In this document: piece by piece, positions 2,123-58,210 of the stretch
Numbering within the stretch: position 1 is the stretch's first letter
Layout: every line of letters begins with the position of its first letter
Source: Elusimicrobiota bacterium
Lineage (GTDB): Bacteria; Elusimicrobiota; Elusimicrobia; UBA1565
NCBI GenBank assembly: GCA_016196755.1
Contig: JACPXC010000010.1
Location: forward strand, 7,802 to 71,801
Reading direction: 5' to 3'
Length of the DNA: 64,000 bases
Position numbers and translations under genes: made by a program
Notes under the pieces: model-generated
What the model was told of the DNA's origin: nothing
The model's database searches: none
What the model saw: only the letters and a program-made list of their open reading frames with translations

Positions 2123-2832
2123 AAGGCAAGGGGCTGGGCTGGGTGATCCTGCTCGGGGCCCTGGCCGTCCCGGCCGTCCTGTTCTTTAAGTGGTGGACCC
2201 AGATGAAAGCGGCCCAGGGCGTCGAGGCCCGCCAGACGCCTCCAGCCGGCGCTCCCTTCGGCGTGCCGGCAGCCTCCCCGCAGGCCGCCCCCATAGCCTC
2301 GGAGGCGGCACTTCCTCGCGATGACGCTCCGTCGCCCGCGCCCGTCCCTGAGACGCCTCCCGCGCAGGCGGCGCCCGAGCCCGCGTTGCCGGCGGAGCCG
2401 GCTCCGGCCCCCGTCGCCGCGGCGCCAACCCTGCTCGCCCAGGCGCCGGTCGAGACGCCTCCGATCGAAGAGCCGAGCAAGCCCCAGGCCATCGAGTACA
2501 TGCCCAAGACCTCGCGCGACCCGATGCTCTCGGTCTCCGACCTGCGCGAGCTCGCCAAGATCAAGTACCAGAAGGAGATGTCCCAGCGTCAGGTCGAAGA
2601 GGCGGCCAAGCCGCCGGAGGAGCCCGCCGCGCCGCCGCCGCGCGCGCTCTGCGAGACCCTCGAGCTGCAGGGCATCATCGGGACCGGCGGCGACGTCGCG
2701 GCCATCGTCAACGACAAGATCGTCCGCGAGGGAGACTCCCTCGGCGGCGGCGTCGTCGTCGAGCGCCTGACGACCCGCACGATTGTCTTTAAGAAGGGCC
2801 GGAAGACGTGCAACAAACGGGTGAGCAAATAG
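2119..2832 (+). CDS. pilP: PilP-like pilot lipoprotein/periplasmic protein with Pro/Ala-rich linker
   Basis: GTG start at 2119 overlaps the pilO stop (GTGA). N-terminal TM/signal, long Pro/Ala-rich region, C-terminal beta domain. Immediately upstream of the secretin gene. Confidence 0.5.
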   Translation: MKGKGLGWVILLGALAVPAVLFFKWWTQMKAAQGVEARQTPPAGAPFGVPAASPQAAPIASEAALPRDDAPSPAPVPETPPAQAAPEPALPAEPAPAPVAAAPTLLAQAPVETPPIEEPSKPQAIEYMPKTSRDPMLSVSDLRELAKIKYQKEMSQRQVEEAAKPPEEPAAPPPRALCETLELQGIIGTGGDVAAIVNDKIVREGDSLGGGVVVERLTTRTIVFKKGRKTCNKRVSK

Positions 2833-2870
2833 CGATCAGCATTCTCCGGCTCGGCCGGGAGGACGCAACG

Positions 2871-4709
<1,839 letters not shown>

Positions 4710-4746: not shown

Positions 4747-5238
4747 ATGAAGATCCGCCGCCGCCAAGCCGGGTTCACGCTCATCGAGCTGGTCGTCGTC
4801 GTCCTGATCATCGGGATCCTGGGTGCCGTGATGGTCCCCGGCTACACCAAGAGCGTCGAGACCTCGAAGGCCGACGACGCCGCGGCGGTCGTCCAGATGA
4901 TCGGGCAGTCCAACCGGATGTTCCGGCTCGACAACAACGCCTACGTGGCCAACGGGACGCTGACCGACTCGATGAACTCGGGGACCTGCACCGCCGGGAC
5001 GACCACGACAGGCCAGCTCATCGCCTGCAACTACCTGGCCTCGCGGAAGTGGGACGGCCTGGCCTATGCCTACTCGGTGGGCACCTCGGTGACGTGCAGC
5101 ATCCCGGGGGCCACCGCAGGCATCGCCTGCGCCAAGCGCACGGGCACGGCGGGCTCGACCTACCTCAACTGGGGCTACGTGATGGACGCCAACGGGCTGG
5201 TCAGCTATTACAACGGCGCGCCCTCACCCCACAATTAG
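4747..5238 (+). CDS. pilA: Type IV pilin / pseudopilin (prepilin with N-terminal methylation motif)
   Basis: N-terminus MKIRRRQAG|FTLIELVVVVLIIGILGAV is a class III signal with a G|FTLIE prepilin peptidase site. 163 aa. Directly downstream of pilQ. Confidence 0.85.
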   Translation: MKIRRRQAGFTLIELVVVVLIIGILGAVMVPGYTKSVETSKADDAAAVVQMIGQSNRMFRLDNNAYVANGTLTDSMNSGTCTAGTTTTGQLIACNYLASRKWDGLAYAYSVGTSVTCSIPGATAGIACAKRTGTAGSTYLNWGYVMDANGLVSYYNGAPSPHN

Positions 5239-6212
5239 GCCGGCGTAACCGTCTCGCGGAGCGCCTTGAGCGCGCGCTCGTGCGCCGCGTAGGCGCCCAA
5301 CCCCAGCCCGGCCCAGGCCAGCTCGCGCGCATGGCGCACGAGCCCGAACGCCAATCCGGCGCGGGGAGGGAGCCCGAGGAGCCCGAAGACCAGGGTCTTG
5401 CCGGCCTCCTGGGTACCGACCTTGGCGGGGACCATGAAGAGCAGGGCGTCGATCACGTTCGAGAGGACCTCGATGCGCAGAGCCGTCGTGAGGTCGATCG
5501 GGACCCCGAGGGCGCGGGCGATGAGCCAGGCCTCGCCGAGGTTCCAGGCGTAGCCCCCGGCGAAAAGGACCACCGAGGCCGCCGAGCGCAGAGGGTGGTC
5601 GGCCAGGAGGGCCAGCAGGTCCCCCGGCAGGCGGCTGACCCAGCCTCTCCAGCCCGGGCGCCCTGCGGCGGGTCCGGCCTGGACGCGGCGCCGCCCCCGC
5701 GGCCATAACCAGACGCCTACAGCACCCACGGCGCAGACGGCTAGGGCGGCCCGGGCGGGCGACTCGTAGGGCGCCACGGCGGGGACCGCCCCGCCGAAGG
5801 CCCAGCCCAGCCCCACGCAGATGAAGAGGACCTGGGCCAACCCCTGGGCGAACTTCGCCGCGACGACGCCGTTGACGCGTACCGCCATCGGTTGGGAGTC
5901 GCTCAAGAGGCTGGCGCGCGCGAACTCGCCCGCTATCGTCGCGCTGGGCGTCAGGTAGTTGACACCGTCGCCCATGACGCGGTAGCGCAGGAGGTCTCTC
6001 AGAGAGAAGGAGGCGGCGTGCTCGGGTCGGAAGGCGCAGCGCCAGGCCCAGGCGTTGAACAGGTGCGCCCCGAGCTCCTGGAACAGGATCGGGACGAAAA
6101 GCCAGCCGACCTGGAGGGTCATGGCCAGCGTCTCGGCGGGGTCCAACTGCCAGAGCAGGAAGGCCAGCATCACCAGGCCAGCGGCAAGGACGGCTTTCTT
6201 GACGAGGCTCAT
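5235..6212 (-). CDS. Lysylphosphatidylglycerol synthase TM region-like (UPF0104 / MprF flippase-like) integral membrane protein
   Basis: Multiple TM helices and a polytopic topology typical of the LPG_synthase_TM family. Start ambiguous (ATG at 6212, 6227 or 6257) because the upstream candidates lie in the inverted-repeat element. Stop overlaps the pilin stop convergently. Confidence 0.5.
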   Translation of the reverse strand: MSLVKKAVLAAGLVMLAFLLWQLDPAETLAMTLQVGWLFVPILFQELGAHLFNAWAWRCAFRPEHAASFSLRDLLRYRVMGDGVNYLTPSATIAGEFARASLLSDSQPMAVRVNGVVAAKFAQGLAQVLFICVGLGWAFGGAVPAVAPYESPARAALAVCAVGAVGVWLWPRGRRRVQAGPAAGRPGWRGWVSRLPGDLLALLADHPLRSAASVVLFAGGYAWNLGEAWLIARALGVPIDLTTALRIEVLSNVIDALLFMVPAKVGTQEAGKTLVFGLLGLPPRAGLAFGLVRHARELAWAGLGLGAYAAHERALKALRETVTPA

Positions 6213-6216
6213 ACTG

Positions 6217-6726
6217 GTGCCATACATTGAGAAGTTGAGAAGTTCGACTCCCGGCACGAAGGTGTGGGTGGGGTCCTAGAACGCCTACAGGAGATCAATT
6301 TACGCGCTTTGGGCGCGTGGATCGAAGGATTGCGATACGGCCGCAATCCTTCGATCAGGAGCAATGAACGGCAATCGGCAATAGGGTTGGCAAGCCTGCG
6401 TGCACGCTTCGCGCACGGATACGGGCCGTTCAAAGACCAAATCACAGGCTGATTCGGAGAGATATCCACCGAGCTGTCCACGTGGACAGTTCCATCAGCG
6501 CCGCGCGCGAAGCGTGCACGCAGCTCGCCGACTCCTTCCGGCGTTCTCCGTTCCAGATCCTCGAATTGCCGGTCGTTCGGCAATTCGAGGATCCACGCGC
6601 CCGAGGCGCGAAAATTTGCATTGGCTCTCATCCCCGCATTGCTCAGCCCTGGTAGCCCAGAGTTCAGTGGCATGATCCAGAAGTTCTATGGACAACGAAC
6701 TTCTCAACTTCTCAATGTATGGCACC
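6217..6726. repeat. Composite ~510-bp palindromic element with perfect 31-bp terminal inverted repeats (GGTGCCATACATTGAGAAGTTGAGAAGTTCG), internal compensatory hairpins and a central CTGTCCACGTGGACAG palindrome
   Basis: Read directly from the sequence: 6217-6247 is the exact reverse complement of 6696-6726. Both arms share conserved blocks (GGGCGCGTGGATC, CTGCGTGCACGCTTCGCGC). Each arm has its own 15-16-bp-stem hairpin at the equivalent position with different sequence. GC is lower (~54%) than the flanks. Confidence 0.85.
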
Positions 6727-6756
6727 GATGGGTGGCCCCGATGGGAATTCTACAAA

Positions 6757-7725
6757 ATGGGGTGGCGGGAGGCCGGGCCTGGGGGCTATACTGCCGATGT
6801 GCGCCGAGGCCCGACGCTGTGGCTGATCCTCCTGCTCGCCTCCGCGGCCGGCGCCGAGCCTCAGCGCTGGCACGAGACCCTGAGCCCGCACTTCCAGGTC
6901 CGCCATGAGGCCGCCTTCGCGCCGCAGGGCCTGACCCTCGACCTCGAGAAGCTCCACAACCGCCTTCGGCTCGACCTGTCGATGTTCGCGCCCTGGATGG
7001 CCAAGGAGCGCATCAACCTATACCTCTACGCCGCTCAGGCCAGCTATCTCCGGGGCCGCTTCCAGCCCCCGTCGTGGTCTAACGGGGTGGCCTTCTACCG
7101 AGACCGGACCGTCGTCACGTTCTCGGGACAGGAGGAGGGCAAGCTCATGCAGGTTCTCGGTCACGAGGCCACCCATCTGCTCTTCGAGGGCTACTGGGGG
7201 GAGCAGGGGAAGACCCCGCCGGTATGGCTCAACGAGGGCCTGGCGATGATGGAGGAGACCGACGCGGAGGGGGCGGCCGGCTCGGACTGGCGCCGGGCCA
7301 TCGAGGCCATGGACCCCAAGGACCTCATGCCGCTGGCGCGCTTCACGAAGATCTCCCCGACCAACGACCTCAAGGACGACCGGCGCGCCGTCACGTTCTG
7401 GTACGTGCAGGCCTACGGCCTGGTCAACTTCCTCTACCGCAGCCGTCCGCGCATGCAGTTCTTCAACTTCTGCGCTCAGCTCCGCGACGGGCGTACGCTC
7501 GAGGAGGCGGTCTGGAAGGTCTACCGCCTCAGGGGCCTGGCCGCGCTGGAGCGCGAGTTCCGGGCGTCGCTGGACCGCCCGGGGCGGCGCGGCCAGATAT
7601 CCTTCGCCCCGCCCTCCGCCTCCGCAGTGCCGCCGCCCTCGGGCCGCGGCGTGCCCATGACCCTCAAGCCCATCGACTTCGGGGACGCCGCCTTCAAGAG
7701 CCTGATGCCCGACGAGAAGAGATAG
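6757..7725 (+). CDS. Secreted zinc metallopeptidase-like protein (HExxH...E gluzincin motif; DUF1570/peptidase-MA-like)
   Basis: HEATH motif (LGHEATHLLFEGYWG) with a downstream NEGLAMMEE glutamate. Signal-like N-terminus (RRGPTLWLILLLASAAGA). Alternative upstream starts at 6688 or 6715 lie inside or adjacent to the inverted-repeat element. Confidence 0.5.
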   Translation: MGWREAGPGGYTADVRRGPTLWLILLLASAAGAEPQRWHETLSPHFQVRHEAAFAPQGLTLDLEKLHNRLRLDLSMFAPWMAKERINLYLYAAQASYLRGRFQPPSWSNGVAFYRDRTVVTFSGQEEGKLMQVLGHEATHLLFEGYWGEQGKTPPVWLNEGLAMMEETDAEGAAGSDWRRAIEAMDPKDLMPLARFTKISPTNDLKDDRRAVTFWYVQAYGLVNFLYRSRPRMQFFNFCAQLRDGRTLEEAVWKVYRLRGLAALEREFRASLDRPGRRGQISFAPPSASAVPPPSGRGVPMTLKPIDFGDAAFKSLMPDEKR

Positions 7726-20352: not shown

Positions 20353-20479
20353 GGATTAACGCGACTGGATGGCGGCCCGACCATCCAAATCCTCCGGAGA
20401 AGGTCTCCGGACCCTTGCTGACACTCTAGTGTACATCCCTTGACGGGAAGTTGCCAGTGGCGCTCCCTAAGCGGAACCT

Positions 20480-49356: not shown

Positions 49357-49457
49357 TGAATCTTAACGCACACTGTTATACGCGCACGCAGTTAGCCCGT
49401 TCCGCGCGGCGTCTGAACACATTGGGCATGATAGTTAAAGGGACTTGGAGAGCCGGA

Positions 49458-50963
49458 TTATCCGAGGGCTCGTTTAAGTAACCGACTAAGTGCTTCCGAC
49501 AGGCCTGATTCCAGTAGTTCCTCTAACTCGCCCGCCCTATGGTCTAATGCATCCGTGGACTCGGTATACACGAAGCGAAACGCGTCAGTCGTTGTGCGAA
49601 TTCTTTCTCGAATGGATTCGCGCGAAGGCCCTTCGACTGCAATGTCTTCCATTTCGCCAAACGTTGTTACAGCCATTACCCCAGCATCTTTGCCGGCTCC
49701 ATGGATTGAGACAACGAATCGAAGCTGTATCCCATCAAGCCGAAGACGCAGTTGAGTCCAGGCAGTAAAAAATGAGAAATCCGCGAAATGTCCAGCTTCA
49801 TGCGCCGAGTCAATAATCTGCACTCGGAACCAGGAACTCATCGGGTCGGGCGGTTTTTTGCTGTCGACAAGGAAATTAGGCTTATGACCTCGCTCGGCAA
49901 GAATTCTTTTCAACTCACCTGCGCGGCGCTTGCACCATGCGTCAATCCTTCCATGAATCCCAATCGCCCGCGCTTCAAGTGCTTTCTGTCTCTTAGTGAG
50001 CTTTCTGTTCTTTAGCTCGGCCAATTGGTCGGCTAACGTATGAGCGATATCGAGGGAAAGAGCCTTGGACTCGACCTGAGGAGGACTCTCTAACTCACCC
50101 GTCAATCCGGCACTTTCAAGACGGATGAAGAGCTTTATCAACTTGTTTAAGTCACCATCATTGGCCGCATCAAGAGCCTTGATGTAATCCTCTCTATGAA
50201 ATCGGTCGACAACGAGAGGCGCAAACTTATGCCGTTCAAGGACGAGCATGGTCAAAGCGCGGGCTACTCTGCCGTTCCCATCTGCAAAAGGGTGGATTCG
50301 AACGAAAGAGTGGTGCATCCAGGCGGCTTTGATGATTGGATGAATATTGTTGTTGGAGTCGAGAATCTCAAAACAATCCACCAAGTGATCCATCTCAGAG
50401 GCGACATGTTCAGGTGGCGTGTACTCAAGAAGTATGTCATCGCTTCTCAAAACATGGTTGGCCTGGGTTTTCCATGCGCCATGGTCTAGGGCAACATCTA
50501 TGGGGATTCCGCGAGCATCGTGCGCCATGTACGTCGCCTGGGTTCGAGTCAGGGAAACGTGCAATTCTTTAATGAATGACGTTGAAAGTTGCCTCGAGTT
50601 GCGAACAAAGTCCAAAACCATTTCCAAGCTGTCACGCTGAGCTTTAAGCGTTTCAACTGTTCGCTCATCGATTTGTCCGCCGGTTCGCTCGATAACATCT
50701 TTTGAAAATCCCTCCGCCACAAGCGTAAGGGTTAGGCCCCACTCGATATTGTAAAGGCGTTCGATAATCCCAGTTTCAATTGCAAGACGACGCAGCGTTC
50801 GTTGACGAATTCTTACAATTTCTGGCTCGGGCAGGCCGGAGAGATAGGTTGCCCATGCTTGCCGCAATGCATCTAGTGCCGCGATGGAACCGTTTGTTTC
50901 AACCTTGCCTGGATCCAACGCTTGAATGCGTTGCCAAGGGATTGTCTTGCTAGGAGTATTCAT
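49458..50963 (-). CDS. Fic-family protein (FIC domain HPFxDGNGR; N-terminal inhibitory-helix motif TxxxEG) with ~200-aa C-terminal extension, on a low-GC island
   Basis: Catalytic motif HPFADGNGRVAR and upstream TLVAEG ([ST]xxxE[GN]) motif. 501 aa. Gene and its ~100-bp flanks are ~50% GC versus ~70% in the neighbours. Confidence 0.85.
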   Translation of the reverse strand: MNTPSKTIPWQRIQALDPGKVETNGSIAALDALRQAWATYLSGLPEPEIVRIRQRTLRRLAIETGIIERLYNIEWGLTLTLVAEGFSKDVIERTGGQIDERTVETLKAQRDSLEMVLDFVRNSRQLSTSFIKELHVSLTRTQATYMAHDARGIPIDVALDHGAWKTQANHVLRSDDILLEYTPPEHVASEMDHLVDCFEILDSNNNIHPIIKAAWMHHSFVRIHPFADGNGRVARALTMLVLERHKFAPLVVDRFHREDYIKALDAANDGDLNKLIKLFIRLESAGLTGELESPPQVESKALSLDIAHTLADQLAELKNRKLTKRQKALEARAIGIHGRIDAWCKRRAGELKRILAERGHKPNFLVDSKKPPDPMSSWFRVQIIDSAHEAGHFADFSFFTAWTQLRLRLDGIQLRFVVSIHGAGKDAGVMAVTTFGEMEDIAVEGPSRESIRERIRTTTDAFRFVYTESTDALDHRAGELEELLESGLSEALSRLLKRALG

Positions 50964-51081
50964 CGTTGATTGAGCTCGCGATTTTACAAATTATGGCTGC
51001 TTCCCGCCCCCCAGTTCCTATCCAAAAGGTCTAACTGGGTCAATCGGCATGAACCGGAATATAATCCGCTCATGAACTAAT

Positions 51082-58118: not shown

Positions 58119-58210
58119 TATCTGGTGTCTATCTGGTGTCAGTGTTTCGGATGTTTCGGAAGTTCAGCTTACTTGCTGAACTTCCGAAACATCCGAAACA
58201 CTGACACCAG
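58119..58210 (+). terminator. Tandem 11-bp direct repeat (TATCTGGTGTC x2) followed by a 36-bp perfect-stem hairpin with 6-nt loop, immediately 3' of tRNA-Arg; possible terminator or element-attachment remnant
   Basis: 58133-58168 is the exact reverse complement of 58175-58210. No U-tract. Local GC is lower (~47%). Confidence 0.5.

Follow-up and report, generated by a model that had tools for sequence, protein, structure and literature searches.

Element A is a 511-bp, noncoding foldback insertion located between two divergently transcribed genes, one flippase-like and one encoding a peptidase, in a metagenome-assembled genome (MAG) of an Elusimicrobiota bacterium. The whole stretch of DNA that was analyzed, 64 kb in length, is referred to as the window. 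Element A is probably a lineage-specific, non-autonomous foldback mobile insertion that belongs, together with two smaller palindromes carrying the same end design (elements B and C), to a small, undescribed MITE/REPIN-like family in this Elusimicrobia lineage. It is unusual, not categorically new. The family would add a probable mobile-element group to a phylum for which metagenomes are nearly the only source of data. At the same time, the locus offers a clean natural case of an apparently leaderless gene cut off from its promoter and thus a test case for the tolerance of a long structured leader.

Boundaries, Terminal Repeats, and Composition of Element A

The limits of element A are set by perfect terminal inverted repeats (TIRs) of 31 bp and by its absence at orthologous loci.

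6216..6726, no strand assigned: element A, noncoding foldback insertion, 511 bp
6216..6246, plus strand: left TIR, composed of the tip GGTGCCA, the spacer TACA, two copies of TTGAGAAG, and TTCG
6696..6726, minus strand: right TIR, the exact reverse complement of the left TIR

All 31 positions of the repeat, GGTGCCATACATTGAGAAGTTGAGAAGTTCG, are identical in the two TIRs. In 100 shuffled versions of the window, none contained any match, even with up to three mismatches allowed. A preliminary description of this DNA had identified the perfect repeats as well as the tandem repeat within them (two copies of TTGAGAAG at 6227–6242), and both are borne out. However, its left arm was off by one position; the element starts at 6216 and measures 511 bp rather than 510 bp. 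The low GC content that had been noted (~54% versus ~70%) likewise stands as a difference, with computed values of 56.9% for element A and 69.6% for the window. Inspection of the flanks (ACT on the left and GAT on the right) revealed no target-site duplication, in agreement with the earlier reading.

Empty Sites at Orthologous Loci

The preliminary description had suggested that the orthologous intergenic regions of relatives be compared for presence or absence of the element. Four such loci were examined, L001 (GCA_004322435.1), L002 (SRR22387960), L003 (SRR22452311), and L004 (GCA_023249735.1). All four harbor the same divergent LPG_synthase_TM/Peptidase_MA_2 gene pair, separated by 40–80 bp, and lack element A. 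Their peptidases share 63–73% amino acid identity with that of the window. Once element A is subtracted, the window aligns colinearly and in the same orientation with each of the four loci; in the BLAST comparison with L002, the alignment ends at 6211 and restarts at 6747. As judged from these alignments, element A is a real insertion and not native sequence. The relatives with empty sites are different species (~74–78% DNA identity), and the insertion is therefore undatable from these genomes.

A chimeric palindromic join in the assembled contig is extremely improbable. The source is indeed a MAG, and mis-assembly can create palindromes. Nevertheless, the arms of element A are just ~77% identical overall and differ by indels, both flanks are colinear with the relatives in the same orientation, and related elements are present at a second locus and in an independent assembly.

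Flanking Genes and a Putatively Displaced Promoter

The two genes and their putative promoter elements are arranged as follows.

5235..6212, minus strand: flippase-like/LPG_synthase_TM gene, 325 aa (Pfam PF03706, E = 2e-25), with its ATG 3 nt from the left TIR
6747..6752, minus strand: putative −10 box TAGAAT, displaced from the flippase-like gene, in a context, CCGCCACCCCATnTTGTAGAAT, common to L002
6787..6792, plus strand: −10 box TATACT of the peptidase gene, intact, 6 nt 5′ of the GTG and 60 nt to the right of element A
6799..7725, plus strand: Peptidase_MA_2 gene, 308 aa, GTG start, 100% identical to NCBI HYZ75_04875

The flippase-like ORF is undisrupted and matches its Pfam family over the full length, and its ATG at 6212 agrees with NCBI record MBI3297471.1. 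It carries only the LPG_synthase_TM/flippase-like domain and is thus not a full MprF. Both annotated starts (ATG 6212 and GTG 6799) fall outside element A. The mirror-image N-terminal peptides that had been ascribed to the two ORFs are a product of reading maximal ORFs. An exact look-up of the nine ORFs overlapping element A found none on record, and for annotation purposes the long ORFs running out of the element are artefacts.

In the four relatives, both genes have a conserved arrangement of a −10 box, 5–9 nt, and the start codon. The flippase-like gene is preceded by TAGAAT, TAAACT, or TAAAAT at 5–9 nt upstream of its start codon, and the spacing of the peptidase box, TATACT/TAGACT-N6-start, is kept in L001–L004. 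The placement of these −10-like hexamers so close to the starts suggests leaderless transcripts; both divergent genes are apparently leaderless, with the spacing kept across five genomes. In the window, TAGAAT (6747–6752) is 534 nt from the flippase-like ATG as opposed to 5–9 nt in the relatives, and its position and conservation point to a promoter role. Since this hexamer is now to the right of element A, the insertion would have separated the flippase-like gene's ATG from its −10 box, with the −10 box and start of the peptidase gene kept. Transcription of the flippase-like gene presumably now passes through a rod-forming leader of 0.5 kb, or else the gene is poorly expressed or down-regulated. 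The left TIR was considered as a source of an outward promoter, but the candidate hexamer, TATGGC, 6 nt upstream of the ATG, is without the conserved final T. A promoter scan of element A yielded only one weak, inward-facing site at a junction and no convincing outward promoter.

These observations bear on the possibility that element A is a native cis-regulatory region, namely a cruciform or an operator for a dimeric protein that controls the flippase-like and peptidase genes, as had been proposed earlier. Its position between divergent genes and its symmetry would suit such a role. However, the sequence is missing at 4/4 orthologous loci, where the intergenic regions span only 40–80 bp, its GC content is foreign, and the conserved −10 box is separated from its start codon by the element rather than flanked by it. 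A native operator is thus very improbable.

Modular Interior and Folding

Between the TIRs, element A contains two pairs of conserved blocks, two homologous hairpins, and a short perfect palindrome.

6297..6323, plus strand: inner conserved block 1, left, holding the small hairpin ACGCGC-TTTGG-GCGCGT; partner 6590–6616
6320..6356, no strand assigned: left-arm hairpin, perfect 15-bp stem, 7-nt loop
6396..6418, plus strand: inner conserved block 2, left; partner 6501–6523
6474..6489, no strand assigned: perfect 16-bp palindrome CTGTCCACGTGGACAG, off-center within the central spacer
6501..6523, minus strand: inner conserved block 2, right; partner 6396–6418
6556..6593, no strand assigned: right-arm hairpin, a homolog of the left-arm hairpin, with a perfect 16-bp stem and a 6-nt loop
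6590..6616, minus strand: inner conserved block 1, right; partner 6297–6323

The presence of conserved blocks in both arms, as originally described, is confirmed, with 24/27 identical positions in block 1 and 22/23 in block 2. In contrast, the three inter-block spacers show no significant similarity between the arms (z = 0.2, 1.9, and 1.1 against shuffles). The interior is accordingly modular, not the uniformly diverged, long imperfect palindrome that it had been taken for. The 16-mer CTGTCCACGTGGACAG is indeed a perfect palindrome; it is located at 6474–6489 rather than at ~6468–6483 and does not mark the center of symmetry, as the midpoint of the TIRs is 6471 and those of the inner blocks are 6456–6460.

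The two hairpins share 27 identities in a 39-column alignment. Their stems differ at four compensated positions and by one added pair, so that the earlier observation of 15- and 16-bp stems with preserved pairing is upheld. In both arms, a small GC hairpin is followed by the long hairpin. The whole element is predicted to fold into a near-continuous rod on both strands (−292 and −283 kcal/mol; z = −17 and −16), and each arm folded alone gains modestly over shuffles (z = −2.9 and −4.3).

The compensatory changes had been read as a sign of selection on structure, and two head-to-head genes for structured RNAs were among the candidates. In this case, the arms would encode a pair of small RNAs, convergent or divergent, or else a long structured leader with a regulatory role, possibly as cargo of a mobile element. 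The homologous hairpins do keep perfect pairing despite four double substitutions and an added pair, the order of small and long hairpins recurs, and the native promoter, provided that it is still active, would transcribe the entire element as a leader. The changes are real, yet self-templated repair of a DNA hairpin yields the same pattern, and they can be explained by such DNA-level templating as easily as by selection on RNA. The gain in folding of the single arms over shuffles is only modest, the arms provide just two sequences for covariation, no intrinsic terminator was found inside element A, and the one promoter-like site, at a junction, is weak. In addition, Rfam covariance models produced no match to element A at gathering score, and at E ≤ 10 only spurious miRNA-hairpin matches far below threshold were returned. 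Structured RNAs as the basis of the arms are quite unlikely.

Coding Capacity and Search for Further Copies

Element A is small and has no detectable coding capacity. Its longest ORF, 154 aa on the minus strand, has a GC3 of 0.61 compared with ~0.9 for real genes of the window. No homologs of this ORF, which served as a proxy for diverged copies, were found in 5.8 billion proteins or among 1.84 billion representatives. It has no Pfam match either, and Pfam searches at E ≤ 1 with six ORFs of the element gave nothing meaningful.

Dispersed copies, which had been named as the mark of a MITE, were sought at several levels. Within the 64-kb window, there is no second copy of the TIR or of the inner blocks. 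Exact-pattern scans of the TIR core in GTDB representative genomes, a set that does not include the source MAG, and of the TIR in JGI metagenomes returned no real copy. The same holds for a block 1-gap-block 2 pattern in metagenomes and IMG/VR and for the TIRs of A, B, and C in IMG/VR; these collection scans recover exact matches only, and diverged copies would escape them. The one GTDB match was unrelated, a tandem (GAGAAGTT)n array at 4528–4631 of locus L005 in a Prevotellaceae UBA4301 MAG with a chance likeness to the 8-mer sub-repeat. No match to element A was obtained by blastn against plasmids and phages, and when A and B were compared at low stringency (blastn) with the window and every fetched locus, only chance-level matches appeared. 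The window, unannotated ORFs included, has no gene for a transposase, RAYT, or integrase.

Elements B and C and a Shared End Design

Two further palindromes resemble the ends of element A. Element B was recovered by a window-wide search for inverted repeats; element C is found in a related MAG.

58133..58210, no strand assigned: element B, perfect 78-bp palindrome, 36-bp arms, 6-nt spacer
2768..2852 of locus L007 (GCA_016218495.1, JACRDU010000004.1): element C, 85-bp palindrome, arms 33/35 complementary

Element B resides 17 nt downstream of tRNA-Arg(TCG) and 9 nt upstream of the ATG of a HEAT-repeat gene. It is absent from the orthologous loci L006, L007, L008/L009, and L010. In the window, 104 nt separate the tRNA-Arg end from the ATG, versus 5–15 nt at these loci, indicating by sequence comparison that element B is also an insertion. 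Its arms match at 36/36 positions and read CTGGTGTCAGTG TTTCGGATG TTTCGGAAG TTCAGC, such that each end consists of CTGGTGTCA, the spacer GTG, the tandem units TTTCGGATG TTTCGGAAG, and then TTCAGC. Element C is situated between tgt and queA-like genes. Its arm, GGTGCCAGGGGACA ACTGTCGCA ACTGACGCA ACT, begins with the tip GGTGCCA and contains the tandem 9-mers ACTGTCGCA and ACTGACGCA.

The ends of all three elements are thus built alike, from a GGTGYCA tip and a spacer of 3–7 nt, followed by a tandem pair of 8/9-mers and the beginning of a third unit. The TIRs of A and B align with 23/35 identical positions, a value equaled or bettered by 4/2000 random windows. Only the 7-nt tip and the architecture are common to A, B, and C; the sub-repeat sequences differ, and a single cognate enzyme is for that reason not obvious. 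It is very unlikely that the tip is shared by chance at the exact ends of the three elements. Across the 64-kb window and ~109 kb of fetched relatives' loci, no palindrome outside the family approaches the 31–36-bp terminal repeats of A, B, and C; other hairpin stems reach at most 17 bp, and other inverted repeats are at most 90% complementary. The GC contents of A, B, and C are 57%, 47%, and 58%, respectively, compared with 70% for the host. Neither a target-site duplication nor a fixed flank motif was detected at their six ends.

Junction Duplications and Possible Modes of Insertion

Comparison with the empty sites uncovers an additional feature at one end of both A and B.

6720..6745, plus strand: tandem 13-nt duplication at the right junction of element A, TGGCACCGATGGG, made up of the TIR tip and flank, and then TGGCCCCGATGGG
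58119..58140, plus strand: tandem 11-nt duplication across the left junction of element B, two copies of TATCTGGTGTC

The duplication at 6720–6745 is extra relative to L001–L004, and the net insertion at element B relative to L006 amounts to 78 + 11 nt. What was gained in both cases is the palindrome plus a tandem junction copy, composed of a few flank nucleotides and a 7–8-nt tip, at one end only. Element C has a junction duplication in degenerate form only. Slippage during replication where a hairpin has its base may be one source of this signature, and an asymmetric transposition intermediate may be another.

The notion that element A is one-off foreign or rearranged DNA, itself immobile, has to be weighed against this background. 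It would then be what is left of a larger, decayed element or a hairpin captured during double-strand-break repair, for example, and its likeness to B and C would reflect a common source or a host process. No second copy of A was found in the window or in the collection scans, there is neither a target-site duplication nor a transposase in the window, and an island of foreign GC with a Fic gene shows that the genome takes up foreign DNA. However, the same tip and sub-repeat layout recurs in three independent palindromes, which occupy three loci of two genomes, the inverted repeats within elements are perfect while the spacers are unconstrained, and A and B bear the same junction-duplication signature. 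A one-off acquisition is therefore unlikely.

For the preferred reading of element A as a non-autonomous mobile insertion, it is hypothesized that the GGTGYCA tip and the sub-repeats form the recognition and cleavage site of a recombinase or transposase. This enzyme would be supplied in trans, and element A would behave in the manner of MITEs or REPINs. The minimal form, two ends around a short spacer, is represented by B and C, and element A has in addition ~450 bp of nested inverted-repeat modules and the two hairpins. The modular interior is consistent with nesting or accretion of inverted-repeat modules inside a minimal element of the B/C type. Because target-site duplications are absent, perfect symmetry within elements contrasts with large differences between elements, and the junction duplication is confined to one end, a hairpin or single-strand mechanism is at least as favored. 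An IS200/IS605- or RAYT-like mechanism is accordingly indicated at least as much as classical DDE cut-and-paste.

An extension of this proposal, which is itself unlikely, is that A, B, and C make up a new class of Elusimicrobia elements mobilized as hairpins (single strands). Such elements would have iteron-like tandem binding sites behind a GGTGYCA cleavage tip, move without target duplication, leave or duplicate a 7–8-nt tip fragment, and be able to nest into rods such as element A. As a corollary, the double-stranded 0.5-kb leader ahead of the previously leaderless flippase-like gene might be processed (e.g., by RNase III), restoring its expression. If the tip, sub-repeat, and junction signature does reflect a distinct transposition chemistry, it would indicate an unrecognized recombinase-substrate pair.

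Relationship to Known Mobile Elements

Prokaryotic MITEs are small (~0.5 kb or less), noncoding elements with TIRs and a lower GC content than the host, which form stable hairpins and occupy intergenic positions near gene starts (PMC10969869). Element A has these properties in common with Correia/NEMIS, RUP, ERIC, Chunjie, and MITEAba12: its TIRs match at 31/31 bp, its 511 bp contain a 154-aa ORF without homologs, its GC content is lowered, and it is intergenic, is predicted to form a stable hairpin, and sits beside a gene start, where expression can be altered. Insertion polymorphism is also evident, as A and B are each absent from four relatives, which are different species at ~74–78% DNA identity. 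On the other hand, none of A, B, and C has a target-site duplication. The direct repeats that flank MITEs decay in older copies (PMC10969869), and hence a missing duplication weakens membership without excluding it. Additional differences from MITEs are the tandem sub-repeats within the TIRs of element A and an interior of nested inverted repeats instead of unique sequence. A near-identical, multi-copy family of A was not found in the 64-kb window or in public scans, B and C being related but different.

Among the candidates of the preliminary description, the MITE-like element is the one best supported, by the empty sites and by the ends of B and C, although the dispersed copies, target-site duplication, and transposase expected of it were not found in the sequences covered. 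Element A is not classed here as a MITE in the strict sense, in view of the absent duplication, a copy number assessed for only 64 kb of the source genome, and the lack of a parent transposase in the window.

For REPINs, movement in the form of single-stranded hairpins with the help of an IS200-like tyrosine transposase has been proposed, and their excision is asymmetric, leaving behind ~6 bp of the conserved end (PMC3116915). This remnant is reminiscent of the 7–8-nt tip fragments beside A and B. Like REPINs, elements A, B, and C are inverted doublets of conserved ends around a less conserved spacer, are predicted to form hairpins, and lack target-site duplications; A is extragenic, and B (78 bp) and C (85 bp) fall within the size range of REPINs. 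Unlike in REPINs, the ends are not REPs, i.e., short imperfect palindromes, as the TIRs hold direct tandem 8/9-mers. Element A is, moreover, five times longer than a REPIN. REPIN systems further include a cognate single-copy gene for a RAYT (a Y1 HUH tyrosine transposase) that is bordered by the repeats, together with tens to hundreds of REPIN copies; the window has no RAYT gene, and no hundreds of copies were seen.

The IS200/IS605-derived palindrome-associated elements (PATEs) have no target-site duplication and rely on DNA hairpins near their ends. Element A is similar in its lack of a target-site duplication and its putative reliance on hairpins. However, the ends of PATEs are asymmetric and lack long TIRs, and insertion occurs 3′ of a fixed tetra- or pentanucleotide, whereas no common flank of this kind is seen at the six ends of A, B, and C. 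Eukaryotic foldback (FB) transposons have long inverted termini in which short sub-repeats are arrayed in tandem, and they can snap back over their entire length. Inverted termini with tandem sub-repeats and the capacity to snap back are likewise features of element A, but FB transposons are eukaryotic and have much longer repeat arrays and target-site duplications, and no evolutionary link is implied. The GGTGYCA tip was also considered in light of dif/Xer sites, integron attC sites, Tn3 or IS1 ends, and oriT nic sites; these resemblances are short, and none is claimed.

Other Variable Loci and Features of the Window

In SRR22452311 (L010, 2783–3649), an extra gene of 288 aa without a Pfam match lies between an adh_short gene and the tRNA-Arg, a further sign that the neighborhood of this tRNA is variable. 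The window also contains a low-GC island at ~49360–51080 (~49–57% versus 70%) that is not flanked by inverted repeats and encodes a Fic/DOC-family protein of 501 aa (49458–50963, minus strand; Pfam E = 4e-18). This island occupies the tgt/queA intergenic region, the same site that accommodates element C in L007 and other sequence in L008, and this region may be an insertion hotspot. Elsewhere in the window, an nhaA-I riboswitch-candidate RNA was identified by Rfam at 20367–20414 on the minus strand, with a score of 52.4 bits, above the gathering threshold.
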